Under the pieces are notes generated by a model that saw nothing but the letters and a program-made list of their open reading frames with translations, was not told the DNA's origin and did no database searches. A stretch of DNA of 59,814 nucleotides, the filler included. It is 3 parts of 3 records of this genome, joined end to end, with 100 filler letters (N's around TTAATTAATTAA, not from the genome) between each part and the next. Parts side by side here need not be neighbours in the genome. Positions count along the whole stretch, not along the records: positions 1 to 29,207 come from SRR22947725_2138; 2 more parts are not named here. One strand, given 5' to 3'. Below, piece after piece: positions 10,768-48,462 of this stretch. Each line of letters opens with the position of its first letter. Within the stretch, counting starts at the first letter, position 1. Made by a program: the position numbers and the translations under genes.

Positions 10768-10768
10768 A

Positions 10769-12769
10769 TCATACACCTATTACGAAGTCCGATGCCGATA
10801 ACTCAAGAGTATAGGCGTAGTAGTTGTTCCCAGCATCATAACGCACATGAAGTTTTTCAGGGATTATCCTAATACCGCCTTCATTTGCACTAGATAAGTT
10901 AGTTTGCAGAGTCAGCCATATTGCATCTTTGCCCAGTCCGACTAAGAAACCAAACAACGATTCTATCTCGTTTGGAGTTATCTGTTTTAGTTTTCTTTCA
11001 AACCAACTATCAGGGCTGTCATCTGTTTCCAGTCCAGTCATGTTTAGTAGTAAATTATCCATTTTCTTAGATGCGGCTCTAGTGTTGTTAGCAGAACCCT
11101 TGTCTAAAACAGGCACTTCGCCAAATGTCAAAAAGAAATTTCTGGCTACACCTGTTACACCTGTACTCTGTATTAGGCTGTCATATGGTATCTGTATGCC
11201 TCTAAGTAAATCATTAGTTCTGTCAGCATTAGAAACTATACCTATCAAATCTTGAGCCTTATCGCCCGCTGACTTCCTTGACTCTACCGGAGTAGTACTG
11301 GTGCTGTGAAATTCTTGCTCTTGAAAAAGCGCTTTCAAATCCGAACTTATAATACTAGGGTGCAGAATAGGTTCTGGTGGACTATAGACTTGTTCAAAAG
11401 TTAGTATGGTGCCGCTTTGGACTACTCTAAATGCATCAGTTAATTTTAAACTAGCACCAAGGGCGTTACTAGGTGCTGATAAAAATCCGGGCATTAATGA
11501 CCCCGTTATGATTGCATCACCACTTAATTCAAACGCCGCTTTTACTCTGTTAGCCATTTCTAAAGCGGGATTATCTACTGTATGTATATTTTTAATTGGT
11601 ACTTTGATTACAGCATCATTACTCGCTGCATCACGAAAAGAACCTGTTCTTGACTCAAATGCTTTATGTAGTATAGTCGGGGAAGAACTATAACTATTTA
11701 CTATATCAAACTGTAACCTAACACCTATACGGGGTGTAGAAGAGGACATTGTAGAAGAGCCAGCAACCGTAAGATTACTGTCCATAGAACTATCGTGGGT
11801 AACAGCGTTCTGTTTGTAAACCTTGTCAGGGTTAGAAAGCCAAAAACTAGGTATCAACTTTATAGTCTGCCCGGCAAAACGATTTGCTAATATTTGATTA
11901 CTTATGTCTACTTTTAACATTGAATTACCTAGAATAATAGAGTCGTTATTAGCGTAAAGTTTTATTGTGTAAACTGCTTTGTCTCCGTCTGCTATAGCAG
12001 GGTCGTCTATGATGTACTGTATATGTCCTACAAAATCTCCAATGTGATTAAATAACTGCGTGGCTATAGTTACTTGAGCAGTATTAGGTAAAGCGTTAGA
12101 TAAATTTCCGGTACAAGTAATTGTATTTCCAGAAACAGATTGAACAATACCTATCTCCGTTCCGTTTTGCTGTATTAGTTTATCACCTGCTAAAAAAACT
12201 TGCTCCGCTGTAGGTACATTTGAAGCAGAACCAGTATAAGATACGGTGAAAACACTAACGCTAGTAGAAAAAGTACTAGTAGATTCAAAATTCATATTTG
12301 GGTGTATGTTAATTTGGGCTGTACCACTATTGGCAAATTCAATGGAACTTCCGGGTAAAGCCATAGCGACTATGGTGTCAGTTTGCCCTTTACTATGTGC
12401 ATTTACAGATGAATATTGGTGCATACCAAAATGCCTTATTTGCGTAGTAAACGAAGCGTGTCTACTACCAAGTCTTGGTGACCTGCGGCTATTGGTAGGA
12501 AGAAACGCACCAAAATTAATTGCGCTTCTCATAGGTTCTGCCTCAAATATACCATCAGAATTAGCACTTACACCTTCGTCGTCAACGAATATACCGTTAA
12601 CTTCTATCTTTATCTGAGGCGTGTTAGTATCTATTGCGAAACGCTTGAGCATGTTATCGGGTGTAGGGAAAGCACTGGCTTTCCTGTCTACAGACATATC
12701 TATGCTTTGGGCTACCAAATCAATCTGGTCTTTACCGTTAGCAAGTAATAATCTGATTGGTATCGCCAT
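10769..12769 (-). CDS. Distal-tail (Dit/tube-initiator)-like structural protein with inserted beta domains, paralog 2
   Basis: 666 aa; GAGGTGA RBS; shares N- and C-terminal blocks with the adjacent 844-aa gene; lies after the tape-measure locus. Confidence 0.55.
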   Translation of the reverse strand: MAIPIRLLLANGKDQIDLVAQSIDMSVDRKASAFPTPDNMLKRFAIDTNTPQIKIEVNGIFVDDEGVSANSDGIFEAEPMRSAINFGAFLPTNSRRSPRLGSRHASFTTQIRHFGMHQYSSVNAHSKGQTDTIVAMALPGSSIEFANSGTAQINIHPNMNFESTSTFSTSVSVFTVSYTGSASNVPTAEQVFLAGDKLIQQNGTEIGIVQSVSGNTITCTGNLSNALPNTAQVTIATQLFNHIGDFVGHIQYIIDDPAIADGDKAVYTIKLYANNDSIILGNSMLKVDISNQILANRFAGQTIKLIPSFWLSNPDKVYKQNAVTHDSSMDSNLTVAGSSTMSSSTPRIGVRLQFDIVNSYSSSPTILHKAFESRTGSFRDAASNDAVIKVPIKNIHTVDNPALEMANRVKAAFELSGDAIITGSLMPGFLSAPSNALGASLKLTDAFRVVQSGTILTFEQVYSPPEPILHPSIISSDLKALFQEQEFHSTSTTPVESRKSAGDKAQDLIGIVSNADRTNDLLRGIQIPYDSLIQSTGVTGVARNFFLTFGEVPVLDKGSANNTRAASKKMDNLLLNMTGLETDDSPDSWFERKLKQITPNEIESLFGFLVGLGKDAIWLTLQTNLSSANEGGIRIIPEKLHVRYDAGNNYYAYTLELSASDFVIGV

Positions 12770-12778
12770 ATTTTCACC

Positions 12779-15313
12779 TCACATTATTATATCTGCTGCT
12801 ATGAACTTAAGACTGAATTCATACGCTTTCATTTCTGCTTCTCTATGAGTAACAAAGTCTGTTACTATACCGCTTATGCCATTTTTAAAATGACCTTCTG
12901 CTGTATTCGAAAACAAACGAGAAGCGTGTATGTTGTTAACAGAAGACAACTTATCACTAGTGTTACCTTCTGTGGTTAAGAAAAAGTTTCTTTGGGCAAC
13001 CTCGGTATCTAAGTTAGACTTACCTTTGGTAGCCAAAGAGTTGTAGGGTATCTGTATACCCCTTATGTAGTCACCCTGTGCATCTGGGCTGTTGTAAAAA
13101 GTATCTTGGACAAAACCACTCGCTACATCTATGACCTTAGCAATTCTGTTACTTGGTACGAAGTTAAGGAAGTTATTGCTGTTAGATAATATACCAATCA
13201 AATCCTGCGCTTTGTCTCCACCGCTCTTTACTCGCTTACCTGATTTACCCCCAGTAAACCCATCTATGATAGGTGCTTGCCCGACACCCAAATTAGTATT
13301 TATTTTGTCAGATAGTTTACCCAAAGATGTAGCGTGACTTTGGGTAATGGTTAATCTTGAATTGTGACCGCTAGAAGATTGCGATATTGCTGTGGTAAAC
13401 GCTTTGTCCAGCGTTAGATTACCTGCTGTATTAACTTGCTTACCTAGAGTAATGTAATTACTAGTTATCGCTTTGGAAAATAAATAAGTGATGTATTCGT
13501 CTGTTCTTGTCAGACTACCGCCGCTATCTCTAGTAGAGCCGTTTTGATGGGAAGGAAATTCAGGGCCGACTGCTTTTTCTGGAAGAGCCGACTCTTCAAA
13601 GGTATCAGCATTCTTAACTGGTATAATCAAAACTGGAGATAAATCGTTGCCGTTTAAACCGGAAGCATCTCCGTAATCAAAAGGCTCTATCCAAACTTGG
13701 TCTCCAGTAGCGTGAGTTGCACCGCCTTGCGACAAGTTAACTGTTATTTGACTAGAGGTAACAGCAGTAACTGTGCCAAAGTATTCTTGCGAACCGCTAG
13801 TTTTACGGTAACTTGCAGCACTATCGTTTTCTTTGAATACTATCCTCATGTTTCGGTTGTTTTCTGTAAGTTCAAACCACTCTCTTGGGTCTCCACCGGT
13901 AACAGGTAAAACAGCAGCACCTGATGATATAGAGTCCAATACCATGTTAGTCTTTCTTCTTTGATTTAAGAAACCATGCGGCTCCTTAACAGAACCAACT
14001 AATTCTTTGTCAAACCCTACTCTTAGGTGCTTATGGTCGTAGGAATATTGCGCTAAACCTTCGTATTTACCTTCTAACAAATGCAGCCCATATTTCCTAG
14101 CAAGATAACCTTCTATCTGATTTCTCTCGTCTGTAGTAACTGCTTTGTTGTAAATTAAAATCTCTTGTACAGCGCCATCTAAACTAGTGCTGGTATCGTG
14201 ACCTATGTACAGAGTACCACTAGTAGCAGGGGTGTAATCTACACCTGATGTTTTACTACCTACTTCTTCTCCACGAGAATATATCTTAACAGTATCTGCT
14301 TGGGCGTTACCGGTAGTGTCATCCATAGTGTAGCATATTAGTTGAGTGCTGTAACTTCTACTACTACCAGTACTAGACGCTTGTGTATCAGCAGAGCCAG
14401 ATTCATCCCAACCTGCTACTACTCTTGTATTACCTTGGTCAAAGGATAAAGAATAACCATTACTAGCAGTTTTCAAAATAGGCCGAACACCTGTTGAAAA
14501 GTTTCTAGCAATGACGAATATCGAAAACTCCTCGGAGTTGAGGAAAGCCGTGTAAGGTATATCTAGCCTATCAGTGCTGTTAAATACAACTTCTGCTAAT
14601 CCTCCGGTAGATGCAATTCTATGAAACGGTCTTAGTCCGGCAGTAGACTGAGTAGCGTGTCTGCCGTTACCGCTTGCATCATTCCATGTTTCGACAGTTG
14701 TATTTTCGTTACCAACTATATTTTCAGGCTTTAGCCATAACTGTAAACCAGTCTTCACAGGATTGTCCAGAGCAGTTGCTTCTTCTACCCAGTAAGCCAA
14801 AGGTAAATCTATGTACCTTTTACTCCAATGTTGTAATATACGATTCCCTAAATCTCCAGAAGATGTAGGGTGGCCACCTAGACCTCCACCAAAGCCTCCG
14901 CCAAATCCACCAGAAAAGCCGCCTCCGCTACCTAAACCAGTGCTACCTATAGCAGATACTCCCATGGCACCTTGAGTGTTAAACGCAGATGGCATCAGAC
15001 CGCCTGTCATACCTCCACCACCACCACTGTCAGGTCTAGGTGTAAACAGTTGTTGAGGCTGATAAAAGTCAATCAAGGCAGTTGCACTACTGGTTTCCTC
15101 TTGACCTACATCATCCGCTAGCACTCCTTGCACTTCTACTGCGACTGCGGCTTGGTTCAAATCTATACCTAACTTTTTAGCATCGAAGAAAGGAATTCCA
15201 AAATTACTGATTTGTCTTTCTACTACTATGTCTATACTTGTAGCATCCAGAGAGATAGTTTCACCGTTCTCTTGAACTAAGCGAACAGGCATTTTCTCTC
15301 CGGCGTCTACCAA
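12779..15313 (-). CDS. Distal-tail (Dit)-like structural protein with Gly-rich linker and LamG/ConA-like domain, paralog 1
   Basis: 844 aa; LQLWLKPE...WNDASGNGRHATQ...FSIFVIAR...LYIG...VQEILIYNKAV...IEGYLARKYGL is a LamG-type signature; immediately follows the TMP-like gene. Confidence 0.6.
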   Translation of the reverse strand: MVDAGEKMPVRLVQENGETISLDATSIDIVVERQISNFGIPFFDAKKLGIDLNQAAVAVEVQGVLADDVGQEETSSATALIDFYQPQQLFTPRPDSGGGGGMTGGLMPSAFNTQGAMGVSAIGSTGLGSGGGFSGGFGGGFGGGLGGHPTSSGDLGNRILQHWSKRYIDLPLAYWVEEATALDNPVKTGLQLWLKPENIVGNENTTVETWNDASGNGRHATQSTAGLRPFHRIASTGGLAEVVFNSTDRLDIPYTAFLNSEEFSIFVIARNFSTGVRPILKTASNGYSLSFDQGNTRVVAGWDESGSADTQASSTGSSRSYSTQLICYTMDDTTGNAQADTVKIYSRGEEVGSKTSGVDYTPATSGTLYIGHDTSTSLDGAVQEILIYNKAVTTDERNQIEGYLARKYGLHLLEGKYEGLAQYSYDHKHLRVGFDKELVGSVKEPHGFLNQRRKTNMVLDSISSGAAVLPVTGGDPREWFELTENNRNMRIVFKENDSAASYRKTSGSQEYFGTVTAVTSSQITVNLSQGGATHATGDQVWIEPFDYGDASGLNGNDLSPVLIIPVKNADTFEESALPEKAVGPEFPSHQNGSTRDSGGSLTRTDEYITYLFSKAITSNYITLGKQVNTAGNLTLDKAFTTAISQSSSGHNSRLTITQSHATSLGKLSDKINTNLGVGQAPIIDGFTGGKSGKRVKSGGDKAQDLIGILSNSNNFLNFVPSNRIAKVIDVASGFVQDTFYNSPDAQGDYIRGIQIPYNSLATKGKSNLDTEVAQRNFFLTTEGNTSDKLSSVNNIHASRLFSNTAEGHFKNGISGIVTDFVTHREAEMKAYEFSLKFIAADIIM

Positions 15314-15315
15314 GG

Positions 15316-15726
15316 TTAACCACTCCTACTAAAGCCGCTCTGTGCCAAAGAGCCACCAATCTTAGACTTCAACTCTTTAGTGACCATTGCGCTTATTTCT
15401 TTAGCCAATGTTCGCTTATCTGTTTTGTCTGTAACTCCACTAACATCTATTTTCAGATTAACCGTAACATTAGTTTCTTGATTAACGCCCCCACCAGATA
15501 CTGGTGCTATACTTTCACCTGTACTTTGTTGCATAGGCTGTGTCCTACTCATGTCTTTAAGAGACTTAGTAAGGTCAACTGTATTTGATTTAGTCATAGC
15601 CATTGACTTGGTAAACTTGTCCATTTGTTGCTGTAAAGCCTGCATATTTTCTTTAGCCGTTTTGCTATATTCACTAAAGTTTTTCATGGACTCTACGGTC
15701 CTTGGGTCTATGTTATCGTCTACCAC
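15316..15726 (-). CDS. Very short tape-measure-like protein
   Basis: 136 aa in the TMP slot; helical/coiled-coil N-half; C-terminal NVTVNLKIDVSG...LAKEISAMVTKELK resembles TMP C-termini; GGAGG RBS before GTG. Confidence 0.55.
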   Translation of the reverse strand: MVDDNIDPRTVESMKNFSEYSKTAKENMQALQQQMDKFTKSMAMTKSNTVDLTKSLKDMSRTQPMQQSTGESIAPVSGGGVNQETNVTVNLKIDVSGVTDKTDKRTLAKEISAMVTKELKSKIGGSLAQSGFSRSG

Positions 15727-15995
15727 TCGTCTTCCTCCAGTCTAGCCACTAAGTCGTAGCCCAGATAAACTGCGCCTTCGGCAGCCTGTTCTTCACCCTG
15801 CATAGCCTGAGCCCAGTAGAGAAGTTGCTTAGCGTCATTTATATTCATTTCCCTTACATCCTTAAGTGTCATACTGTAGTGTGTCATTAGTAAATATTCC
15901 ATTGCTTGTTTCTGATAGCGAAGCCGGTCACTCACAGGTCTCCCGTTAATGAAGTACTTGATTTGTCCAACTTCGCTGGCCGAAAAACTAGCCAT
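15720..15995 (-). CDS. Tail assembly chaperone -1-frame extension (gpT-like)
   Basis: Overlaps the upstream chaperone in the -1 frame; YLLMTHYSMTLKDVREMNINDAKQLL resembles gpT-type segments. Confidence 0.6.
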   Translation of the reverse strand: MASFSASEVGQIKYFINGRPVSDRLRYQKQAMEYLLMTHYSMTLKDVREMNINDAKQLLYWAQAMQGEEQAAEGAVYLGYDLVARLEEDEW

Positions 15996-16267
15996 TCCAT
16001 AACCTGACTAGGGTCTGGTAAAAGTTTAGTAAGTTTCTGACCATCTTTTGGAGATAGGTTCGCTATATCAATTTCTATAGAACGACCATCTGGGTCGGTA
16101 TAACTAAGCCAATGGCTAAAAGCATGTCGCCAGTAGTTTGAAAAATCTAGGCTACCGTGAGTCATTAGCGGTGCGATTTCTTGCACATGATAAAATGTTA
16201 ATCGCCGCTTGCTAACTTCTACTGGTTTACCGTTTATTGTTATTTTACTCTTGTTCTCCTGTGACAT
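15932..16267 (-). CDS. Tail assembly chaperone (gpG-like)
   Basis: 111 aa between tail tube and TMP slot; KITINGKPVEV..RLTF start; T-run near the 3' end. Confidence 0.6.
   Translation of the reverse strand: MSQENKSKITINGKPVEVSKRRLTFYHVQEIAPLMTHGSLDFSNYWRHAFSHWLSYTDPDGRSIEIDIANLSPKDGQKLTKLLPDPSQVMEWLVFRPAKLDKSSTSLTGDL
15982..15988 (-). promoter_or_regulatory. Putative -1 ribosomal frameshift site (GTT TTT C)
   Basis: CTA GTT TTT CGG in frame 0 versus AGT TTT TCG in the -1 frame, at the start of the overlap of the two chaperone ORFs. Confidence 0.55.
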
Positions 16268-16475
16268 ACTTACTCACTTCCTCGTCGGATAGTGCCTCTT
16301 GTGAGGGGCTATCCTCCAGTTTCAGGTGAGCGAATGGGTCATCACTGGCTCGCCCTGCTTCTGGGTCGAAGAGGTATTCTCCACCCTCTTCTTCTTCTTC
16401 TCTTTCCTGCTCAATTTTAGGATATACCGTTAGTTTGGCAAAGGGGTTGAGCGAAAATCTCTTCCTCATTGGCAT
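16245..16475 (-). CDS. Small acidic hypothetical protein
   Basis: 76 aa; GAGGAG RBS; basic N-terminus and poly-Glu tract; fills the gap between tube and chaperone genes. Confidence 0.7.
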   Translation of the reverse strand: MPMRKRFSLNPFAKLTVYPKIEQEREEEEEGGEYLFDPEAGRASDDPFAHLKLEDSPSQEALSDEEVSKYVTGEQE

Positions 16476-16484
16476 AGTATCTCC

Positions 16485-18560
16485 TCAGCAGTGGTAAATG
16501 GTATCTTCACTAATTACTTTAACATTCTGTGGTTTGAGTTTCAAAGTGGTAAATAATAACCCTTTGTCGTCAGGTACAGGTATTGCTAAATCAGTGATTA
16601 TGTAATCGTCAATAATGACTCTAAGGCTAGGGGTGGTATCGCTACCAGTAGTTACAGGTTTGGTAAAGTGCAACATTATTGTACCACCAGTAGAGCCAAC
16701 CGTACCGCCTCTTTGAGTGTGAGTTCTTAGTTCATGATAAAGTGCAGCGTCTTGTAAGGCCAGAGTAATTTCCATTTCGAATTGCTCTCGACCTTCTCTG
16801 ATAATAGATGCATTACGAGTGCCTCCGTAAGGAACTTGCTTAGTGCTCAGACCGTTGGCGTTTACAGTCTCTGGTATAGGGTTACTTTGGATTGTATGGA
16901 ATACTTCTACGCCAGTTTTCCCTCTAAGTTCAAAAGCACTAACAAAGCCTAGATTTTGGTCAAAGGCTGATATAGTACCGTTGTAAAACATAAACGGCTT
17001 TTCTGAGCCTTTGGCAATCCCTGACTCTTTTTTATTCTTTAGAGTATCAGCAGTATTTTGGAACATTCTGTGAGCGGTATACCTGTCGCCTGTGTTACTT
17101 GATTCTAGTCTACCTGTATCTGTATAACAGGACAGTGCGTCGAATATAGCACGATACTTTAGTTCTGCGTCGGTTGTACTGGACAATTCGTACTCAACAA
17201 TCTTACACCCTTTGAATACCCTAGTCAATTGCTTAGTATCACCGGCGGCACCCGGAGCAATGGTAGTTTCGTTGGTAGCGTTAAATGAACCTAAATCTCT
17301 AGTCCTTACACTGTGTTCTAAGCAAAAACTAGGAATTGTTTCTCCTGAAAAAATTAATCTACGGACAGGGTTGTCGATTTGACGACTAGACTGTACATGC
17401 GGGCTACCGTCAGCATTATTATCACGGTAATGTCTTAATTCAAGAGTATCGGCAGTAGTGTGTTCAAACTGCCAACTTCCGTCTACATACAATCGGAATT
17501 TACTACTTCCTAAACTTTCTATAGCGCTTATTCTTCTACACTCGCTACTTTCTGCCCATTCAAAGTGATGAGCGTCACTACCTAAATTAGAACTTGACTC
17601 AGACGGCCAGTATTTATCAGTGTCTAGTTCAGGAGTTTTGTAAGTAGTTGTAGGTACTATAGTAGTGTCCTTGACGAGTAAATAGTCACCCACTGTTGCA
17701 TTTGTACTACTACCGAACCTAACATTCGATGCATCGCTACTAGTAACATCAATGTAACCTTGACCGGGCGCTACAGATGCTAATATTGTAGGCACCGGAC
17801 TAGTATTGTGCACACGCTCTCCGCACTTATCTTTACTTACTACTTCTCTACCTAAACTGTAGAATAACCACTTAGGGCTATGAAGTGGCATTTCTATTGC
17901 ACCACCCATGTGATGAACTTTACCTGTCTGCTGAACAGCCACTTGCCTACCCAATCCAACTACATGGTAACTGTGTAAATCTACCTTAGTGTCAGGTAAT
18001 GTCATGTAAGATGCCAAACCTACAAACCCGTCAATCAAACTAACTTCTTTAGACAACTTTGCGGCTGCATTCATCTCAGAATTGGCATCACCCTGCACTG
18101 TAGGTAAACCAGTAGAGTGTACGAGTATAGCGTCTCCTGTACCGCTACTAACTGATGCTTGGAACGGAGACAAGGCGGGGACTATTTTTATCTTAGTAGA
18201 GTTGTTTCCGTCGGTATTAGCAGCAAAAGTATGGTCAACTATAGTGTAAAGTTTACTGTTCAAATCAGTGTAATAGTAAGAAGAAAAGTTATTGGTACCG
18301 ACAGTAGAAGAATGAAATGTAATTTTTTGACCTATTAACATACCGAGCGGTATTTTCAAAATAGGCAGGGCTGCCTCAAATATACTAGTGGCACCAGCCG
18401 CACCAGTTCCTCTAAACTCTATCTCAGTAAAGTCAGGTGAAGAAGTACTAGTAGTAGCAGTCCAAGTCCTAGGCTTACTATGTTCAATGAATAAACTAGT
18501 TTCTTGCCCCATAGTAACTTCTGAGACATCTCCCTTATAGTGAGCACCAAAGCCACTCAT
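16485..18560 (-). CDS. Major tail tube protein with inserted accessory domains
   Basis: 691 aa; tube-like motifs VVGLGRQ...GAIEMPL..PKWLFYSLG, IPSFCLEHS, RVFKGCKIVEYELS, PFMFYNGTI, IREGREQFEMEITL. Confidence 0.75.
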   Translation of the reverse strand: MSGFGAHYKGDVSEVTMGQETSLFIEHSKPRTWTATTSTSSPDFTEIEFRGTGAAGATSIFEAALPILKIPLGMLIGQKITFHSSTVGTNNFSSYYYTDLNSKLYTIVDHTFAANTDGNNSTKIKIVPALSPFQASVSSGTGDAILVHSTGLPTVQGDANSEMNAAAKLSKEVSLIDGFVGLASYMTLPDTKVDLHSYHVVGLGRQVAVQQTGKVHHMGGAIEMPLHSPKWLFYSLGREVVSKDKCGERVHNTSPVPTILASVAPGQGYIDVTSSDASNVRFGSSTNATVGDYLLVKDTTIVPTTTYKTPELDTDKYWPSESSSNLGSDAHHFEWAESSECRRISAIESLGSSKFRLYVDGSWQFEHTTADTLELRHYRDNNADGSPHVQSSRQIDNPVRRLIFSGETIPSFCLEHSVRTRDLGSFNATNETTIAPGAAGDTKQLTRVFKGCKIVEYELSSTTDAELKYRAIFDALSCYTDTGRLESSNTGDRYTAHRMFQNTADTLKNKKESGIAKGSEKPFMFYNGTISAFDQNLGFVSAFELRGKTGVEVFHTIQSNPIPETVNANGLSTKQVPYGGTRNASIIREGREQFEMEITLALQDAALYHELRTHTQRGGTVGSTGGTIMLHFTKPVTTGSDTTPSLRVIIDDYIITDLAIPVPDDKGLLFTTLKLKPQNVKVISEDTIYHC

Positions 18561-19030
18561 GGTATCAACTCCGCTAGTATTACTACCTCTACTTGGAAAG
18601 TGTGCCTAAACAGTTTCTTAGTTCGGTCAGACAAGTCAGTACGGGTCTTGAGTACCATACGGTCAAAATTTTCACCATCACCTTTACGAGTAGTATGTAT
18701 GACCCTCCTCATCTCGTTCTCCATTTTTCTAAGCCTAGACCTACCTCTGGCCGTTCTGATGTCAATAGTTATGTTGTACCTAGTAGTTACAAAGTTGTAA
18801 AGTAAATCAGGAACCCGCTCTTCAAAGGCAGTCTCGTAACATAGGATATAGTCATGGCGCTGTAAATCTAAACGCTTTCCTCTTTCTGGCCCTTCACTTG
18901 CTATGTCTATTATCACAGGTTTGACATTATCGGTGTTGGCTCTGTTCCAACCAGTACCTGCACCTGCGTCGTGGTTAGCCTTGAGTAAATCAATAACTGT
19001 CTCCAGCGGTTCTTTCCATGTAGCGCCCAT
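18557..19030 (-). CDS. Tail terminator/completion-like protein
   Basis: 157 aa directly before the tube gene; YNITIDIRT...EMRRVI...FRHTFQVEV pattern. Confidence 0.6.
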   Translation of the reverse strand: MGATWKEPLETVIDLLKANHDAGAGTGWNRANTDNVKPVIIDIASEGPERGKRLDLQRHDYILCYETAFEERVPDLLYNFVTTRYNITIDIRTARGRSRLRKMENEMRRVIHTTRKGDGENFDRMVLKTRTDLSDRTKKLFRHTFQVEVVILAELIP

Positions 19031-20739
19031 TAAGAGAACACCACCACTTCTTTGTAGCGGGCTAGTATTTCTGCGGCTTCTTTACGGAACAACTGAATCT
19101 TAGAACCTAAGTCGACATTCTGAGAGCCCTCTGGTATCAAAACGCTACGGTCATCCGACATCAATAAATCAGCCGCTACCATCTTAGTAGCAGCCTCTTG
19201 TATCGCTTTCTCTACATATCTTTCTCCGTAGATGTAGGATACCTTGACAGAGTTATGTTCAAAGAAAGGATAAGAGTTATTGAAGTAAATTATACCCATT
19301 TCAGAATCAATCCACCAATCACGGAGTCTCCCTTGGTCGCCACTGCTACTTCTGTCTACTGTCGTTTCACCGGTAACTGCATCAACTATAGAACTATTAG
19401 AACCAGCCTGTAAGTCAAGTTCAAACTTATGCTGAGTTACAGTATAATTTACATTGTCAGTTATCGCATCTCCAGCGAGTTTGACAACGCCCGTCAGCCC
19501 AGTTACATCTGGGCCTATTGAGCCGTATGTTTTACCTGTGTAACCAATTACACTCACATCTGTTGAGCCAGCCTTTCTTGCTATGGCTACACCATAATCA
19601 GCAAACGCAATGTCGCCAGAGGCTGAAAATGTACTACCGGTGTGTTGCATAATATTACTGACGACGCTTGTCTTAGAAACTGTCATAGCCTTGTCTTCTT
19701 TATCACTGTCGTAAACAACTATAGTAGCCTGCTCTCCGCCCTTTGCAGGCTGCATACTGGTAATTTTTATTTGACCATTACCGTAATCTGCATTAGCAGA
19801 AGCGAAGAATTCATTGTGAAGATGAATAGAAGAATCCCCAGTCGCAGAAGAGCCATCTGGTTGGGTGTAAGTAGTCCCGACTGGACTGTCAGTATTAGTA
19901 GTGAATGTTACATTAGAACGGTTTACCCTGTCTTCTTTGTTAATTAAATCAGCAATGTTTTGAGAAGTTGTTACCTTGTTAAAAGCCGCAGCCCATTGGT
20001 TTGTCCCAGAGCCCGGTGCTAATTTAGCAAAGCCTCCGCCACCCGGTGACAGAAATAAAGTAAAACTGGATGCTTCATTATGGTCAAGAAGTGTTAAACG
20101 AGCCTCAGCACCGCATATCTCTCGATAACTGTCGCCTTGCCATAGTTCGATTCTTAACATCTGCTGGACATTTCTAAACAACAAAGGAACTGTCCCTACA
20201 TAATCTGTGAAGTATCTACGCCTGTATGGTTTGTATGTATCGAAGTTCAGATACTCAGCCGCCACCAAATATGGCCTCCAAGCGTTGTGGGTAATGTTGT
20301 CAATGCGGTCTTGTATTTCTTTGATTCTAGTTTCAACAATTGACTTCTTCATACCACGAGTCTTACCGTTAGTAAATGCTGCTTGGTTTTCCACATAAGT
20401 GTTAGCAGCGGTAGTAAAGTTGCCATGGGTAAAAGATGTGTCAGTGACTAACTTTACCCCACTAGCGCCACCATTCGCAGTGGTTGTGATATTTAGTTCT
20501 GTACCTAGTGGGTCTAAGTCACTGTAAACAAGTACAGTGTCTCCGGCACTAAAGCCTACATTTCTGAAATCTCCACCAGTAACAAATACACCGTCTGACA
20601 CTGCGTTAGCGCTAGACAAAACGGCTTCACTAGGTCCAATACCTAGTAAGTCTGCTACCTTCTGAGCAGTAGTGTATACTATCGCATCAGGGTCAAGAGG
20701 GCGTGTTTCTGGCTCTCCGGGTGAAAATACTGCTGGCAT
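19030..20739 (-). CDS. Head-tail adaptor (gp6/gp15-like) with large insertions
   Basis: 569 aa; YTTAQKVADLL, RIKEIQDRIDNITHNAW, WWIDSEMGIIYF, VKVSYIYG..AIQEAATKMVAADLL. Confidence 0.65.
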   Translation of the reverse strand: MPAVFSPGEPETRPLDPDAIVYTTAQKVADLLGIGPSEAVLSSANAVSDGVFVTGGDFRNVGFSAGDTVLVYSDLDPLGTELNITTTANGGASGVKLVTDTSFTHGNFTTAANTYVENQAAFTNGKTRGMKKSIVETRIKEIQDRIDNITHNAWRPYLVAAEYLNFDTYKPYRRRYFTDYVGTVPLLFRNVQQMLRIELWQGDSYREICGAEARLTLLDHNEASSFTLFLSPGGGGFAKLAPGSGTNQWAAAFNKVTTSQNIADLINKEDRVNRSNVTFTTNTDSPVGTTYTQPDGSSATGDSSIHLHNEFFASANADYGNGQIKITSMQPAKGGEQATIVVYDSDKEDKAMTVSKTSVVSNIMQHTGSTFSASGDIAFADYGVAIARKAGSTDVSVIGYTGKTYGSIGPDVTGLTGVVKLAGDAITDNVNYTVTQHKFELDLQAGSNSSIVDAVTGETTVDRSSSGDQGRLRDWWIDSEMGIIYFNNSYPFFEHNSVKVSYIYGERYVEKAIQEAATKMVAADLLMSDDRSVLIPEGSQNVDLGSKIQLFRKEAAEILARYKEVVVFS

Positions 20740-21257
20740 TACTGTCCCTCATTTGGTGGAATGAAAGCAGATGGGTTTGGCTCAATGAATTGCATTGAGT
20801 TACCTGTTGGATATTGTGCATAATGTTCTCGCATGGTGTAATCATTTTGAGGGTCTATTGCGTTGTAATAATTAGCCTGTGCTATTTGTTCCTGCAATGT
20901 CGGAGGAGGTAAACCTCGCTGTTCACGAGTTCTATAATTACCTCTACCTTGAGGGTCTCTTTGAAGAGGGGAATAGAAATGATTAGTCGGGCTTGCATTA
21001 GCAAAACCTTCTGTTGCTAAAGGTATTCCCATTTCATCTACTATGTCGCCTATAGCATTGCGTTCAGCCATTGCAGAAAGAGCATCCCCTGCGCTCAGGG
21101 CTCTATCATAGCCTGTTTGCCTCGTCGGAAATGATTGGGCCCCGTATCTTTTATACGGGAAAGTCCGTTTAGCATTTCTAACAAATTGTTCGGGCGCACG
21201 ACTCTGGAAACCTTGTATTGATTTCAACAAATCCCACGCTGCATCAAAAGCCTTCAT
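20739..21257 (-). CDS. Hypothetical protein with N-terminal AFDAAWDLLKS motif; possible internal head protein
   Basis: 172 aa; GGGGAG RBS; low-complexity Q/P-rich body. Confidence 0.7.
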   Translation of the reverse strand: MKAFDAAWDLLKSIQGFQSRAPEQFVRNAKRTFPYKRYGAQSFPTRQTGYDRALSAGDALSAMAERNAIGDIVDEMGIPLATEGFANASPTNHFYSPLQRDPQGRGNYRTREQRGLPPPTLQEQIAQANYYNAIDPQNDYTMREHYAQYPTGNSMQFIEPNPSAFIPPNEGQ

Positions 21258-21301
21258 CTACTCTCCCCCTAACTAAGCCATGACACGATACATCATTAAA
21301 T

Positions 21302-21586
21302 CTACTGTTCTTTTACTCCTAAATTGAAGTCCATTTGTTTGCCACAAGTTCTGCACTTATCGACCCAGCAGAAGTAAAGCATTCCACAACCTTTGCATCG
21401 TGTACCGCTACCGATGTTCAGTACATCGCCAGCGTTCTTGTTACGATTGCGCTGTTTAATTGTCACGCCTTCTAAGGGCTTTTCGTCGTTGGTCTTTACA
21501 GAGCCGCCGTAAGATTCATTGAGTCGAATACCACGCTTTTGTAAACGCTTAATGTCATCGAGTCCTAGACTGCCGAATGCATCCAT
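21302..21586 (-). CDS. Small zinc-ribbon protein
   Basis: 94 aa; CKGC-x9-CRTC near the C-terminus. Confidence 0.75.
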   Translation of the reverse strand: MDAFGSLGLDDIKRLQKRGIRLNESYGGSVKTNDEKPLEGVTIKQRNRNKNAGDVLNIGSGTRCKGCGMLYFCWVDKCRTCGKQMDFNLGVKEQ

Positions 21587-21596
21587 CTAATCAGCC

Positions 21597-21788
21597 TCAC
21601 AAGAAGGTGATTAATATGTAATAATTACCCAAGACTAACATTGGGTCAGAAGCCACCAAACTAGATGTTGTTAACCCAGTAAGTGTACCTACATCGCTTT
21701 CTATCTTAGCAAGTAATGTAGCAGAGTCTGTGAATTCTTGAGGAGCATAAGGTCCTACCAACTTAAACTTAGGTTCTAGTGTTGCCAT
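21597..21788 (-). CDS. Small hypothetical virion protein
   Basis: 63 aa, in operon orientation with short spacers. Confidence 0.7.
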   Translation of the reverse strand: MATLEPKFKLVGPYAPQEFTDSATLLAKIESDVGTLTGLTTSSLVASDPMLVLGNYYILITFL

Positions 21789-21796
21789 ATCAATAC

Positions 21797-21847
21797 CTAC
21801 TTAGAACCTATTATTAGAAACTTCGCTATTTCGTAAAAGCCAGTCAA
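21797..21847 (-). CDS. 16-aa mini-ORF (MTGFYEIAKFLIIGSK) or gene remnant
   Basis: TTG start 5 nt after GGCGGTGA RBS; fills the 75-nt intergenic gap; TAG stop at 21797-21799. Confidence 0.45.
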   Translation of the reverse strand: MTGFYEIAKFLIIGSK

Positions 21848-21863
21848 TTAAGTCACCGCCTAA

Positions 21864-22400
21864 TCAGCGTTGACCTAGAATCCACCAGCGGCCTGCTTGG
21901 CCGGTACTGACACTGGTTGCACCAAGATTACCATTACCAAATATTACTCTACTATTAGTTTCGTCAATACTTACTGAAAGATTTCCATCAGTCAAAGTTA
22001 CTGCACCAGTGTTTGGTCCGTGTTTAAACAAACTTTTGTTATTGGGGTTTGCTACTAACGAACCTGCTTCTAGTGTAATTTGAGTAGCACTATCTACCGA
22101 AAGAATTCTTCCCATCCTTTCTCTAACAGCATTGTAAAGGTCTTCACCTCTATTAAAATGAATTCTTGCGTCTACAGTATCTACAGTTATTACTGTATCT
22201 CCAATTTCAACACCGTCTGGTGTATCATCAATTTTAATGCCGGTATCATATGCAGATGTTACATGCCCACCTGCTGCAAGAACAGTTGATAATACTCCAT
22301 CAAATGATACAGAAGTACCACCGTCAGTAAAAGTTCCTGTAAGCATGAGCATATCGCCCATTACATGTGTTCTTGTGTCTGCTGTGTGTGATGCTACCAT
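21864..22400 (-). CDS. Hypothetical structural protein with inserted beta-barrel module
   Basis: 178 aa, G/T/S-rich beta composition; FNRGEDLYN...GRILSVDSATQITL module. Confidence 0.7.
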   Translation of the reverse strand: MVASHTADTRTHVMGDMLMLTGTFTDGGTSVSFDGVLSTVLAAGGHVTSAYDTGIKIDDTPDGVEIGDTVITVDTVDARIHFNRGEDLYNAVRERMGRILSVDSATQITLEAGSLVANPNNKSLFKHGPNTGAVTLTDGNLSVSIDETNSRVIFGNGNLGATSVSTGQAGRWWILGQR

Positions 22401-22849
22401 TATTCTTCAACTCCGCTTGTCTCTACGAGTGAGTCCTCGGTTATAGTATCTTCTACTACTTCTTCTGCTACAGGCTCAGGAGCGACCTCCTCAACCACTG
22501 GCTCTGGTGCCGGTGGATTGAGTGTGGTCTTTACCTTATCCAAGAGTTTTGCTTTAGTAGCATACCCTGTGATAGATACTCCTTTGTCTTTTAACCAACC
22601 TGTGATATCTTTCTTAGTCCAACCTGAGTCGGGTAATCCATCACCATCAGCGTCTTCTGTAAAGCCTATTCCTGCTGTAGTCTTGGCATCGCCTTTGACT
22701 ACAAACGCTTCTGGGTTAGTACAGATAGCAGTACGGTTAGCATCTAGCCATTCTTGAGAGACTTCTTGAGGTACTCTCTTAGGCCAGATACTCTTTGTAC
22801 CCGGTACTTTTCTATAGGCGTAGTTACCTATGTATGTAACTGTAGGCAA
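22400..22849 (-). CDS. Hypothetical protein with HeH/Rho-N-like helical motif and acidic tail
   Basis: 149 aa; WTKKDITGWLKDKGV...ATKAKLLDKV; GGTGA RBS before TTG. Confidence 0.65.
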   Translation of the reverse strand: MPTVTYIGNYAYRKVPGTKSIWPKRVPQEVSQEWLDANRTAICTNPEAFVVKGDAKTTAGIGFTEDADGDGLPDSGWTKKDITGWLKDKGVSITGYATKAKLLDKVKTTLNPPAPEPVVEEVAPEPVAEEVVEDTITEDSLVETSGVEE

Positions 22850-22860
22850 GATTACTCACC

Positions 22861-23298
22861 TCAAGCGAGTAATAGCCAAAGTTCAGTCGCTGATACATCT
22901 GCTGCACTGTCATCGTGTTGCTTCAAATCAAAAGTCAATACTAAATCGCTTGTTTTAGTAATACCCATGATTGCAGTTGCGTCTACATGTGAACCTATAA
23001 CTGATACGATTTTGCTAACTTCTCCTGAAAGAGTAAGTGTGTTACCATCTGCCAATGATGAATTTAACGAAAGACAAACTAATCTTGGGTTTCTCTTACC
23101 TATGTTAGTTGTATCGTCATTGGTTGCTTGGAAGCCAGTAAGTGCTCCGGGGTATGTACCCGCTGCTGCACCTGCACCGCTTAACCAACCAGTTTCATCT
23201 TGGTCTACTCCACCTTGAAGTCCCAAATCTGAGTTTACAGTTGTTATGTAAGTCCCAGTTCCTGTATATGTTATTCCTCTATGTGTTGTTGCTGCCAT
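22861..23298 (-). CDS. Putative capsid decoration/minor head protein
   Basis: 145 aa directly after the MCP; strong AAGGAG RBS; T/G/A-rich. Confidence 0.55.
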   Translation of the reverse strand: MAATTHRGITYTGTGTYITTVNSDLGLQGGVDQDETGWLSGAGAAAGTYPGALTGFQATNDDTTNIGKRNPRLVCLSLNSSLADGNTLTLSGEVSKIVSVIGSHVDATAIMGITKTSDLVLTFDLKQHDDSAADVSATELWLLLA

Positions 23299-23337
23299 AT
23301 TTAATCATCTCCTTAATATTTTATTCTCCATTAATCC

Positions 23338-24471
23338 TCACTTCAAGTCACGGATAGAACCTTGACCTCCAAAGAAAGTTGTCCATACTTCACCCATTGT
23401 GCGGTAAAGTCCCTCTTGACCGAGGCGGTTAATGGCGAATGGGTCTCCAGTTTCAATTCCAGACTCAAAGTATTGAGTTGGTTTTGCAGTACTAAAGTAT
23501 AGGTAGTCAGTGTCCAGCATGTAAATTCTGCTGATAGCGTCACTAGCCATCTCTTTAGTTGGAATGATTGGTACACCGTTGTAAGTTGCTACGATGAAAC
23601 CTGCTTCCATACCCGGAACACCTTTTACACCGTTAAATGTTGGTACTACTCTCTTCTCTTCCATGAACCTTTGTTGGCTTTGTAGAAGTTGTTGAATTCT
23701 CATCAATGTATCATATCCAGTTAGCATAACCTTTGGATTTCCACCACGAGTCCAAACAAGTCTGAAAATTTCATCCAAGTGGTCAAGTGATAGAGTTCTG
23801 TTAGTAGAACCGCTGTCAGCAGAATCCTCAGCATATGACCAAGAGTTGGCTGCTACATTTCTGTCGATTGAGTAAATGTCTTCGTCGCCAGTATCGTAGT
23901 GAGTACCGGAAGTCATTGAGTTAACACCAGTGGTGATTCTGTCAAGTGATTCAAAGTCATTTCCTGCTACAGTTGTTACATCCTCAGTTAGCATATCGTT
24001 GATGTGCTCTGCGTGATGCTTACCCATTTCTTCTTTCAAGACTGAACGAATGTCACCTAGACCGTCGTCTTTGTCGTTTAGGAAGATTGCTGTCTCAGAC
24101 ATGTCGAATGAGTGAGCAATAGTTTTAGGCTTTGCTGCAACATTTTGGAAGGTAGGTTTGGTTGTGTCTGGTAGTGTACCGTTCTCTGCAATTCCGCCAC
24201 CAACAGTCTTGGAAGGCTTAGCAGTAACTACTCTCCATCCACTTCTGTCCCATGGTTTCTTTGGTAGAATTGAAAATGCGTTGAATTCTTGGTTTAGTTG
24301 TGACCAAACTTTTCTACCGTAGATTGCTTGGTATGTTCCTGCTGTTGTGCTTAACAATGGTGCATCAGCCTTCAATAGTTCTGAACCAGAGTATGAATAT
24401 CCCATACTTTGACCAGTACCGTAGTAGTAGCGCTCCATGTCGTTGATTGTTCTCATGTAATTTCTTGCCAT
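23338..24471 (-). CDS. Major capsid protein (HK97 fold)
   Basis: 377 aa after protease/scaffold; YGRKVWSQLN, LPKKPWDRSGWRV, FESLDRI, ATYNGVPIIP, GLYRTMGE; AAGGAG RBS. Confidence 0.9.
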   Translation of the reverse strand: MARNYMRTINDMERYYYGTGQSMGYSYSGSELLKADAPLLSTTAGTYQAIYGRKVWSQLNQEFNAFSILPKKPWDRSGWRVVTAKPSKTVGGGIAENGTLPDTTKPTFQNVAAKPKTIAHSFDMSETAIFLNDKDDGLGDIRSVLKEEMGKHHAEHINDMLTEDVTTVAGNDFESLDRITTGVNSMTSGTHYDTGDEDIYSIDRNVAANSWSYAEDSADSGSTNRTLSLDHLDEIFRLVWTRGGNPKVMLTGYDTLMRIQQLLQSQQRFMEEKRVVPTFNGVKGVPGMEAGFIVATYNGVPIIPTKEMASDAISRIYMLDTDYLYFSTAKPTQYFESGIETGDPFAINRLGQEGLYRTMGEVWTTFFGGQGSIRDLK

Positions 24472-24505
24472 ATATATCTCTCCTTAATTTTGTTTATCCT
24501 CTATT

Positions 24506-25360
24506 TCAGTTGTTGAAAACACTCCCAGCGAGGTTGTGTACCTCTGACCAGTCCATGCTTGCCATGTCCATTGTCGAAGGGACTTCGATAGTGGAAAGTT
24601 GTTTTCTGATTGTTGCTGCTTCTGCTGAGTTAGATGAACTGCTAATGTTATCAATTCTACCGCTCAAGTCAGATAGAGCCTTTTCGATGTTAGCAAGTGG
24701 TGTTCTTGCATCAAAGGAAGCGGCTTCTCTTGCTTGCGCTTCTGAAGTAAGTTCTTTGCTTAGTCTGTCAGAAAATACAATTCCTAAATTGGATTTGAAT
24801 TGTTCTTCAAGAGATGCTGCTTTGTAAACTTCATATGCTGCTTCAAGGTCAGTTGCGGAAACTCCACTTGGGTGTAAGTATCCTTTTGCTACTGCGCCGC
24901 TTCCGCCGCTGTTGACTTTACCGATAGCGTTAGTAGATGGTGAACCACCTTCTTGTGCTCTTCCTTTAACTTGTCCAGCGAAGTAATCTGCACCGTCGCC
25001 AATTGATTCTGGTGTACTACCTAGATTCTGCTTTGCTATACTATCAAAGTGACCTCTTGCGCCCATTATATCAACGCCTGCTGATTTAAGGGTGTTTTCC
25101 ATCCAGTTCAGATAGTCAGTAGTAATGACATCGGAATATCCTTTTGCCATATCTGCATCTTCTTTGTGCTCAGCACCGTACATTTTCTTATCTTCGTCTT
25201 CGGTCATTTCTTCAGCCTCGTCTTTTTTGGGTTTCTTCTCTTGAGATTCTTCAAGAGCCCTCTTTGCTGCGTCTGGCATTTCGCCTTTTTCCATAGCATC
25301 GAGTCTTCCGTTCAGTCTATCTAGTGTGCTTGACAATTCGCCTAATACATTATCGTTCAT
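24506..25360 (-). CDS. Putative nested in-frame scaffold protein (internal start Met180)
   Basis: AAGGAGG 8 nt upstream of an in-frame ATG at 25360, exactly at the protease/scaffold boundary. Confidence 0.6.
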   Translation of the reverse strand: MNDNVLGELSSTLDRLNGRLDAMEKGEMPDAAKRALEESQEKKPKKDEAEEMTEDEDKKMYGAEHKEDADMAKGYSDVITTDYLNWMENTLKSAGVDIMGARGHFDSIAKQNLGSTPESIGDGADYFAGQVKGRAQEGGSPSTNAIGKVNSGGSGAVAKGYLHPSGVSATDLEAAYEVYKAASLEEQFKSNLGIVFSDRLSKELTSEAQAREAASFDARTPLANIEKALSDLSGRIDNISSSSNSAEAATIRKQLSTIEVPSTMDMASMDWSEVHNLAGSVFNN

Positions 25361-25897
25361 ATTTGTGTCCTCCTTCAATATACGGAATGTCGCCTCCGGG
25401 TTAATACCTTTTTCGCAAATAGTAACCTCATGAAGTTCTAGTTTGGAGATTTCTGTATAGTCACCGTGTTTTTGGTCACTCTTTCGCATTCTCTTGAATG
25501 CTTGTCCTCCAATACTGAAACCTCTAAGGGCACCTTTGCGAATTTCTTTGGCAACTTCTCTTGCCTTTTCTATGTCGTCTCGTAGTTTAATGACTACGAA
25601 CATACCAGCATCATCAACGCCGGATTTCCAAACTCTACCGTTAGAGTCAGTGTAAGATGGTATTACGCTTCCTACTTGTATGTTAGAGTGAGCGAGTTGT
25701 ACATTTCGGAAACCGTCTGCTTTCATAAAGTCGTCAAACGCATTACCTAAAGCGCCTCTAGTAATCAAGTCACCTTGCTTGTCTACCATCTCTACAGATG
25801 CGTATCCAGCAATCACTAGGTCGCTGTCAGCCTTCAAAATACTAATACTTCCGCCGTGGTTAACGGGGGAAGTTCTCAGTGATGCAGATGCTGCCAT
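24506..25897 (-). CDS. HK97-family prohead protease fused to a scaffold domain
   Basis: IAGYASVEMVDKQGD, LAHSNIQVG (His), GFSIGG (Ser), LHEVTICEKGINPEATF; charged helical C-terminal half. Confidence 0.9.
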   Translation of the reverse strand: MAASASLRTSPVNHGGSISILKADSDLVIAGYASVEMVDKQGDLITRGALGNAFDDFMKADGFRNVQLAHSNIQVGSVIPSYTDSNGRVWKSGVDDAGMFVVIKLRDDIEKAREVAKEIRKGALRGFSIGGQAFKRMRKSDQKHGDYTEISKLELHEVTICEKGINPEATFRILKEDTNMNDNVLGELSSTLDRLNGRLDAMEKGEMPDAAKRALEESQEKKPKKDEAEEMTEDEDKKMYGAEHKEDADMAKGYSDVITTDYLNWMENTLKSAGVDIMGARGHFDSIAKQNLGSTPESIGDGADYFAGQVKGRAQEGGSPSTNAIGKVNSGGSGAVAKGYLHPSGVSATDLEAAYEVYKAASLEEQFKSNLGIVFSDRLSKELTSEAQAREAASFDARTPLANIEKALSDLSGRIDNISSSSNSAEAATIRKQLSTIEVPSTMDMASMDWSEVHNLAGSVFNN

Positions 25898-25920
25898 TGC
25901 TTCTATAGACTATGCTCATA

Positions 25921-25928
25921 CTATTTAA
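25921..25928 (-). promoter_or_regulatory. Archaeal TATA-box-like element (TTAAATAG) for the head operon, probably leaderless mRNA
   Basis: About 24-31 nt upstream of the protease ATG, which has no Shine-Dalgarno sequence. Confidence 0.5.
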
Positions 25929-29207: not shown

Positions 29208-29307
29208 NNNNNNNNNNNNNNNNNNNNNNNNNNNNNNNNNNNNNNNNNNNNTTAATTAATTAANNNNNNNNNNNNNNNNNNNNNNNNNNNNNNNNNNNNN
29301 NNNNNNN
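29208..29307. other. Artificial contig spacer
   Basis: N44-TTAATTAATTAA-N44, stops in all six frames; composition and gene content change abruptly across it. Confidence 0.98.
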
Positions 29308-48362: not shown

Positions 48363-48462
48363 NNNNNNNNNNNNNNNNNNNNNNNNNNNNNNNNNNNNNN
48401 NNNNNNTTAATTAATTAANNNNNNNNNNNNNNNNNNNNNNNNNNNNNNNNNNNNNNNNNNNN
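48363..48462. other. Artificial contig spacer
   Basis: N44-TTAATTAATTAA-N44. Confidence 0.98.

Follow-up and report, generated by a model that had tools for sequence, protein, structure and literature searches.

A 136-residue tape measure homologue in a marine archaeal virus contig and the stub tail that it may specify

How long a tail would be built on a tape measure protein (TMP) of only 136 amino acids is the question raised by a viral contig in the stretch of DNA analysed here, a window of 59,814 nucleotides in which three contigs are joined end to end. The viral part occupies positions 1-29207 (29.2 kb) and carries all of its viral genes on the minus strand. A preliminary description of 15316-20739 had placed there a full siphovirus-type order of tail genes in which the open reading frame (ORF) in the TMP slot is only 136 codons long, and had proposed a virion with a stub tail. 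That a protein ruler sets how long a tail grows is textbook knowledge. The ORF at 15316-15726 (minus strand) has the slot position and the C-terminal homology of a TMP, and it is reasonably likely that it acts as a minimal ruler giving a tail of about two to three tube rings.

The open reading frame in the tape measure position

Along the minus strand, the gene for the major capsid protein (MCP) is followed by small genes, then by ORFs of 569, 157, 691 and 76 amino acids, an overlapping pair of 111 and 91, the 136-residue ORF, and finally ORFs of 844, 666 and more than 3592 amino acids; those of 15316-20739 are all present on that strand as first described. The order and sizes of these tail genes recur in a related locus, L003, the sole relative to emerge from a scan of genome contigs, in which a protease of 463 and an MCP of 375 residues are followed by products of 523, 157, 697, 87, 121/90, 139 and 847 amino acids; only 2.7 kb of L003 lies downstream of the TMP gene. 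In both loci the 0/-1 ORF pair comes after the tube gene, and the TMP slot lies directly between this pair and the tip genes. The annotated order of the haloarchaeal siphovirus HVTV-1 parallels this slot: gp128 is followed by a chaperone annotated as a joined coding sequence (gp129-130), at the position equivalent to the ORF pair, and then by the TMP, gp131.

The small gene in this slot is real and conserved, as the preliminary description had taken it to be. Its frame is open from stop to stop over 15319-15741, so that at most five more codons are possible upstream. A homologue search returned 137 proteins at E <= 0.01 among 150 candidates, and length counts rest on the 120 that were listed. 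Both conserved ends are present in 105 of the 120, which are counted as full-length and have 121-163 amino acids: 66 have 136-142, 36 have 159-163, and three have 121, 131 and 146. The distribution is bimodal, and the longer class carries a single, helical-looking insert of about 23 residues in the linker.

Three parts of the protein can be told apart in the alignment. The first, residues 1-63, is conserved; within it, residues 9-63 form a single 55-residue stretch free of proline and glycine, with invariant hydrophobic residues at heptad-like spacing, and would be helical; this is the only long stretch of its kind among the viral ORFs of the window, all others being short. A variable, glycine-rich linker (residues 64-85) separates it from a nearly invariant C-terminal TMP domain (residues 86-136). 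Prediction of a three-copy complex returned a score of 0.00, and a pLDDT below 50 for the protein's own fold, with the alignment unused; it is evidence neither for nor against the oligomeric state that such a stretch may adopt.

Kinship with known tape measures emerges from a family profile of 26 members, searched against 1.84 billion representatives. There are 124 matches at E <= 1e-3, those over the full length being 145-195 amino acids long. Seventy-nine of the 124 are proteins of 201-600 amino acids in which the match covers only profile positions of about 90-135, and in all 79 the aligned part ends 0-13 residues from the C-terminus. Among 18 matches that were sampled (17 of 252-600 amino acids and one of 195), 17 are assigned by PHROG as "tail length tape measure protein", typically via the C-terminal end of the profile, the 195-residue protein being the sole one without such an assignment. 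At least 13 matches align to the C-terminal third of phrog_15478, the family to which the annotated TMP of HVTV-1, gp131, belongs (E 2e-208). A reverse profile, for which the 79 long proteins supplied their last 75 residues, has the 136-residue ORF as its sole match (E 7e-20) among 519 six-frame ORFs of the window, a check that is partly circular because the 79 proteins had been chosen by the first profile. Because the C-terminal match holds in all 79 long proteins, because 17 of the 18 sampled are TMPs by PHROG, and because synteny agrees, the ORF is well supported as a TMP homologue, and sequence comparison makes this assignment highly probable. About 45 C-terminal residues that match the C-termini of TMPs thus bear out the earlier reading of the slot gene as a tape measure.

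Some shorter matches (124-190 amino acids, with the C-terminal domain only) were considered as further mini-TMPs and rejected. From about the third residue onward they follow the C-terminal part of long TMP profiles, and look like gene fragments.

Tail tube and predicted tail length

The tube gene lies at 16485-18560 (minus strand). In the Pfam and PHROG scans, which covered 19 viral ORFs of the window, its 691-residue product alone has no match, nor does it match a PDB sequence. It has 604 homologues at E <= 1e-3, and three of the four homologues that were scanned match Pfam PF18906 (Phage_tube_2), two above the cut-off of 27 bits (37.3 and 27.8) and the third just below it (25.7); the fourth homologue and the window protein itself have no PF18906 match. 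An AlphaFold2 model built with 29 sequences (pLDDT 73.4, pTM 0.79) has as its top Foldseek match in the PDB the major tail protein of SH-Ab15497 (8xan_A, E 6.8e-8), followed by the tail tube of P74-26 (8ed0_A, E 1.4e-7), T5 pb6 (7qg9_A, 9iny_A, 5ngj_B) and DT57C, all at probability 1.00 with E values of 7e-8 to 5e-5. These alignments cover some 300-350 columns, or about half the chain, and smaller fold matches to N-terminal parts of tailspikes and lyases (7w1c_D, 130 columns) cover some of the remainder. By its predicted fold the protein is confirmed as a non-contractile tube of the T5/P74-26 type, and the term "heavily decorated", used in the preliminary description, is right because the tube fold covers about half of the chain and tailspike/lyase-type matches lie elsewhere, about 340 amino acids being extra (decoration) domains. 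With these extra domains it is about 230-380 amino acids longer than the T5 pb6, P74-26 and DT57C tube proteins that are its best fold matches, and it has no sequence match to their chains. Tube proteins of that kind have two tube domains fused in one chain and assemble into rings of three. By analogy the 691-residue protein would also form a trimeric ring; alignment of its halves with hhalign detected no internal duplication.

Two known tails provide a calibration for the ruler. In the archaeal siphovirus HFTV1, as far as the available text of the structural report goes (PMC12494034), residues 2-316 of the TMP are helical and span 11 tube rings in a tail of 560 Å, and residues 317-341 dock into the tip proteins, which corresponds to about 28.6 helical residues per ring. 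For the gene transfer agent produced by Rhodobacter capsulatus (RcGTA), the available text (PMC7296036) describes a TMP that consists of a helix of 113 residues, strands and loops totalling 83 residues and a C-terminal helix of 20, and that fills five tube discs plus Dit at a pitch of 38.3 Å in a tail of 49 nm. Applied to the 136-residue TMP, the HFTV1 value gives 55 / 28.6 = 1.9 rings for the proline- and glycine-free stretch, or 85 / 28.6 = 3 rings if all residues before the C-terminal domain are counted, and these 85 residues as a fully extended chain, at about 3.4 Å per residue, would reach about 29 nm at most. By the same calibration, the 23 residues that set the two length classes of homologues apart amount to about 0.8 ring. 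By analogy with these tails the predicted tube would thus have about two to three rings, fewer than the five of RcGTA, and a stub tail is the most economical reading because both HFTV1 and RcGTA put a TMP of 136 amino acids at about that number.

The assembly of such a tail can be outlined. The 136-residue protein would keep both ends of a ruler, with the helical middle cut to about 50-55 residues. Its conserved C-terminal domain, the one that closes longer TMPs, would dock into the tail tip, as in HFTV1, and its conserved N-terminal part would presumably be handled by the G/GT-like chaperones. Polymerisation of the T5-type tube protein on the tip complex would stop after about two to three rings, as would follow from the shortened helical ruler, and the 157-residue terminator-like protein would then cap the tube. 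The product would be a non-contractile tail of a few tens of nanometres at most, made of siphovirus parts in a podovirus-like outline, and carrying the lectin-bearing tip proteins and the giant distal protein. The stub-tail reading of the preliminary description thus stands as regards a short TMP homologue, a decorated tube and a giant distal protein; the number of rings and the length of the tail are extrapolated from HFTV1 and RcGTA.

RcGTA is one of the known tails most like the predicted one, since in the available description (PMC7296036) it combines siphovirus-type parts with a very short ruler (g11) and a short tail. Its TMP of 216 residues has a 113-residue helix, whereas the window TMP has 136 residues, at most about 55 of them helical, and no sequence relation between the two was found. 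Its tube proteins are also small and hexameric and its host is bacterial, in contrast to the 691-residue tube of the T5/P74-26 kind in an archaeal virus lineage. In HFTV1, again by the available text (PMC12494034), the coiled coil of the TMP (gp40) matches the rings one-to-one and the last ~25 residues dock in the tip; that TMP has 341 amino acids for 11 rings, against 136 amino acids here, and the 136-residue family has no PDB chain match. In P22 a short tail is closed by the gp26 needle, itself a short trimeric rod, but the gene context in the window, with its tube and chaperones, is of the siphovirus type. A link between short TMPs and podovirus needles has been proposed by the RcGTA authors, in the text available (PMC7296036). 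The closest cultured relatives by MCP are the Druskaviridae HVTV-1, HCTV-1 and HCTV-5, which have the same order as the window (MCP, small genes, tube-sized gene, frameshifted chaperone, TMP) and whose TMP family, phrog_15478, shares its C-terminal domain with the window TMP via intermediate sequences; the HVTV-1 TMP has 480 amino acids and the tube-position protein 337, as against 136 and 691 in the window.

Several observations weigh against a ruler of two to three rings. Searched by itself, the 136-residue protein matches no family in Pfam, PHROG or the PDB, and its link to TMPs rests on a domain of about 45 residues that is reached by the family profile only. An hhalign comparison of the 136-residue family with the HVTV-1 TMP gives a probability of 1.2%, which is not significant, and the best local match of the TMP C-terminal profile to HVTV-1 lies near the TMP's C-terminal end, a suggestive position, at an insignificant E of 0.55. 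The N-terminal half has no relatives outside the 136-residue family, and its many invariant columns are unusual conservation for a ruler, so that it may not measure. The overlap of the putative chaperone ORFs holds no canonical slippery heptamer (X XXY YYZ), a G-TTTTT-CGG run being read there as GTT TTT CGG in frame 0, and neither ORF has a Pfam or PHROG match even at E up to 10. The viral genome is known only as a 29.2-kb fragment, and a second ruler could lie elsewhere in it; nor is there a micrograph of any member of this virus group in the portion of the literature searched.

Some of these points can be turned into other accounts. The protein could be a TMP-derived remnant that plugs or primes the tip through its C-terminal domain while tail length, perhaps an ordinary one, is set elsewhere: by a second ruler in a genome of ~90-105 kb, by an intrinsic property of the tube, or by serial copies. 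Only 29.2 kb of the virus lies in the window and relatives are on contigs that reach about 105 kb, conservation of the N-terminal half far exceeds that of typical ruler segments, and the available published descriptions assume ordinary helical tails, with haloviruses as the analogy. Against this, the gene stands where a ruler canonically does, behind the chaperone pair, no TMP family is matched by any of the 19 viral ORFs of the window and no other among them offers a long helical stretch, and two length classes ~23 residues apart, roughly one ring, are what would be expected of a ruler. In known tails the gene at the post-chaperone position is the ruler, and known tails without one are of uncontrolled length; both facts count against a remnant, which we consider unlikely although it has to be taken seriously. 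That the ORF is unrelated to TMPs, being a small assembly or structural protein with a convergent or compositional C-terminal motif, is quite improbable. The match is short (about 40-50 residues, E 5e-9 to 9e-4), no family match exists for the protein alone and hhalign against the HVTV-1 TMP is insignificant; yet all 79 long matches carry the motif at the very C-terminus, 17 of the 18 sampled are TMPs by independent PHROG profiles, the aligned consensus is not of low complexity, and synteny agrees.

A contractile or other type of tail, with a sheath or further tube parts outside the window, might be entertained since the genome is incomplete and the interval from the MCP to the adaptor-like gene holds several unassigned ORFs. 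The usual place of a sheath gene, between the terminator-like and tube genes, holds no gene, and the best fold matches of the tube protein are non-contractile tubes of the T5/P74-26 type with bulky outer domains. No sheath-like match was found among the 19 viral ORFs by Pfam and PHROG, nor in the tube fold search, in agreement with the absence of a sheath first claimed for this locus, and such a tail is hardly to be credited. The preference remains with the short ruler.

Chaperone-like pair, neck and tip

The candidate G-like tail assembly chaperone has 111 amino acids (15932-16267, minus strand) and its counterpart in L003, at 9475-9840, has 121. The T-like ORF of 91 amino acids (15720-15995, minus strand; L003 counterpart at 9732-10004, 90 amino acids) lies in the -1 frame of the G-like ORF and overlaps it by 64 nucleotides, the 0/-1 relation being kept in L003. 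In both loci the -1 frame becomes open no more than a few codons ahead of the conserved G-TTTTT-CGG run (15980-15988, minus strand), which makes this run the only shared slip candidate that the frames suggest, and slippage in the P site of the tRNA on TTT before CGG is possible. The pair is thus arranged like the G/GT chaperones, and its membership is a candidate one based on arrangement. The stop of the T-like ORF in turn overlaps the start of the TMP gene, as GTG..TAG at 15720-15726 in the window and as ATGA at 10001-10004 in L003, so that three successive frames are used: 0 for the G-like ORF, -1 for the T-like, and again -1 relative to the latter for the TMP. The overlap is most simply understood as translational coupling. 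The siphovirus-type order of the preliminary description therefore holds for the tube (by fold), for the TMP slot (by homology) and, at the level of reading frames, for the G/GT overlap, which lacks the canonical heptamer and family matches. Between the tube gene and the chaperone pair lies a small acidic ORF of 76 amino acids (16245-16475, minus strand) that has no family match and has an 87-residue counterpart at 9237-9500 of L003; both products are very acidic, with a conserved run of glutamates and a following motif.

The head-tail adaptor candidate is a protein of 569 amino acids with a large insertion (19030-20739, minus strand), and its last 127 residues (442-568) match phrog_17057, of unknown function. 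Atlas leads connect the protein with Phage_connect_1/HCP at 0.86-0.87. The candidate tail terminator or tail completion protein (157 amino acids, 18557-19030, minus strand) matches phrog_19972, also of unknown function (E 4e-5), and has Atlas leads to tail terminator and tail completion families at 0.92-0.93. Neither protein has a Pfam match, and what speaks for the names adaptor and terminator of the preliminary description is these language-model leads only. Its statement that no gene separates the two is correct: the adaptor-like gene runs straight into the terminator-like one, leaving no space for another, both in the window and in L003. A stopper could be encoded by one of the six small, functionally unassigned ORFs found after the MCP and before the adaptor-like gene; for this reason, and because the two names are leads, the minimal neck of the preliminary description is not supported. 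In the same head-tail region, a 94-residue ORF (21302-21586, minus strand) that has no family match carries two CxxC pairs near its C-terminus and is zinc-ribbon-like.

On the other side of the TMP gene, the Dit slot is occupied by a protein of 844 amino acids (12779-15313, minus strand) composed of an N-terminal core, a glycine-rich stretch, a Laminin_G_3 domain (residues 273-396) and a C-terminal core. It matches the phage collection via the lectin domain only. The two cores are shared with the 666-residue product of the next gene (10769-12769, minus strand), at 41% identity for the N-terminal (E 4e-10) and 39% for the C-terminal core (E 3e-9), and the inserts of the two paralogues differ. 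An AlphaFold2 model of the 666-residue protein has a pLDDT of 63.8, is confident only in the inserts and falls below 60 in both cores. With this low-confidence model the best match in a PDB fold search is a tail tube (9n71_A, E 7e-4), T5 Dit pb9 is reached at E 0.17-0.27, and a "Major tail protein" stands at rank 3 in BFVD (E 6e-5); comparison of the family profile with that of the tube family detected no relation. A fold of the tube/Dit family is therefore weakly indicated by the model, and the label Dit-like for the pair is reasonable but unproven. In sequence searches of the PDB, neither the 691-, 136- and 844-residue proteins nor the profiles A1, A2 and A3 gave a meaningful match. The tip connector of HFTV1 is a pseudo-hexameric trimer in the available text (PMC12494034), and the two paralogues might represent such a solution; they might also form a mixed ring at the tail tip.

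A giant distal protein of more than 3592 amino acids (1-10776, minus strand), cut by the edge of the window as its leftmost viral ORF, follows the 844- and 666-residue genes, as expected of the giant tip protein first proposed. It has no Pfam or PHROG match and no long helical stretch, and is for these reasons not a hidden ruler. Its N-terminus has, by eye, the look of a concanavalin/LamG-type domain.

The viral contig, its relatives and their tails

The window falls into three regimes of composition, of about 42%, about 52% and about 28% GC. The viral contig ends at an artificial joint (29208-29307, N44 + 12-base all-frame stop linker + N44), and a second joint of the same N44 + 12-base + N44 make-up lies at 48363-48462. 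Pieces 2 (52% GC) and 3 (28% GC) have bacterial housekeeping content: one non-viral piece carries a truncated AdoHcy hydrolase, TsaE, AddAB-like nucleases, trp genes, S1 and EPSP synthase, and the other carries CoaX, LptC, SurA-like, RuvC and HemN-like genes. The whole resembles a mixed bin into which a viral contig was placed by mistake, and L003 is also viral, a contig binned inside a Parvibaculum metagenome-assembled genome. Because portal and terminase genes are absent from the viral contig (1-29207), the viral genome is incomplete in the window.

The MCP (377 amino acids, 23338-24471, minus strand; phrog_24667, E 1e-55; Pfam SU10_MCP), preceded by the gene for a prohead serine protease (S78) identified in the Pfam and PHROG scans (24506-25897, minus strand), places the virus. 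It matches 11 records in a collection of cultured and annotated phages, eight of which are Druskaviridae, haloarchaeal siphoviruses (HVTV-1, HVTV-2, HCTV-1, HCTV-5 and HCTV-16), at 31-33.5% identity across 99% of the protein; the other three represent two metagenomic methanogen viruses and are more distant. Neither the DNA of 10769-29192 nor, at the protein level, the tube or the 136-residue ORF has a match in this collection. The tail proteins have their homologues in marine metagenomes, including those of Tara, where the contigs reach about 105-109 kb; for the closest homologues of the TMP, the tube and the 666-residue protein the longest contig is in each case 90,848 bp, and others lie on contigs of 97-108 kb. 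In the available part of the report by Liu et al. (2021; PMC8651126), Druskaviridae are nested in an MCP clade that is largely marine and that also holds magroviruses as well as viruses of marine Thaumarchaeota and Thermoplasmata. On the combined evidence of the halovirus MCP matches, the marine sources of the homologues, the 90-105-kb contigs of relatives and that clade, sequence comparison identifies the contig as a marine archaeal tailed virus of the clade that holds Druskaviridae and magroviruses; plausibly it is a magrovirus (Magrovirales).

Published accounts of magroviruses and their relatives, in the text available, give only "predicted" helical tails by analogy with haloviruses (PMC5434244, PMC10160649, PMC11706807, PMC12999244). 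The term "tape measure" does not occur in the available text of PMC5434244, PMC10160649 and PMC11706807, and the parts of the supplementary text of PMC11706807 and PMC5434244 that were searched hold no tape measure or tail tube annotation. In the accessible text of one paper that names magroviruses, a tape measure is mentioned for a pelagiphage and not for magroviruses, and the portion of the literature searched for short or truncated tape measures yielded only unrelated work. The shortest TMP with a structure in that portion is the one of RcGTA, with 216 residues and five discs (PMC7296036).

Ruler, chaperones and tube belong to a known mechanism; what would be new is the extreme shortening, together with a decorated tube of the T5 type, in an abundant uncultured archaeal virus lineage. 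We advance, with somewhat more doubt than confidence, the broader suggestion that these widespread marine archaeal (magrovirus-like) viruses have a morphotype of their own, in which the full siphovirus pathway of tube, frameshifted chaperones, ruler and terminator is compressed to two to three decorated trimeric rings of the T5 type and the ruler changes in single-ring steps from subclade to subclade, between the 136-142- and 159-163-residue forms. If so, their particles would pass for podoviruses, or even for non-tailed viruses, in micrographs, and no natural tape measure would be smaller than this protein, which would also offer a minimal setting for testing how rings are counted. A conserved 136-residue ruler across many marine metagenomes (137 homologues) would extend the lower limit of rulers. 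The reading predicts a short-tailed look for these uncultured archaeal viruses, with a bearing on how counts of marine virus morphotypes are interpreted, and the compact tail module (tube, two chaperone ORFs, ruler and two tip paralogues) suits tests of length control by a ruler.

Two further observations concern the relatives and the far end of the contig. The methanogen virus vir519 (L002, BK063666.1), which has a related MCP, carries at 17316-26535 genes for 334 (tube-sized), 94, 610, 605 and 1436 amino acids. These genes follow the head genes, with no annotated TMP among them, and the TMP C-terminal profile has no match among the vir519 ORFs. Upstream of the prohead protease, the rightmost viral ORF (1087 amino acids, 25929-29192, minus strand) contains, at residues 660-762, an ATP-dependent DNA ligase domain (PF01068) that scores 27.3 bits against a cut-off of 26.2, and its N-terminus is probably missing because the ORF ends at the contig joint. 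The products gp113 and gp115 of HVTV-1, at the equivalent position, are large multi-domain proteins.

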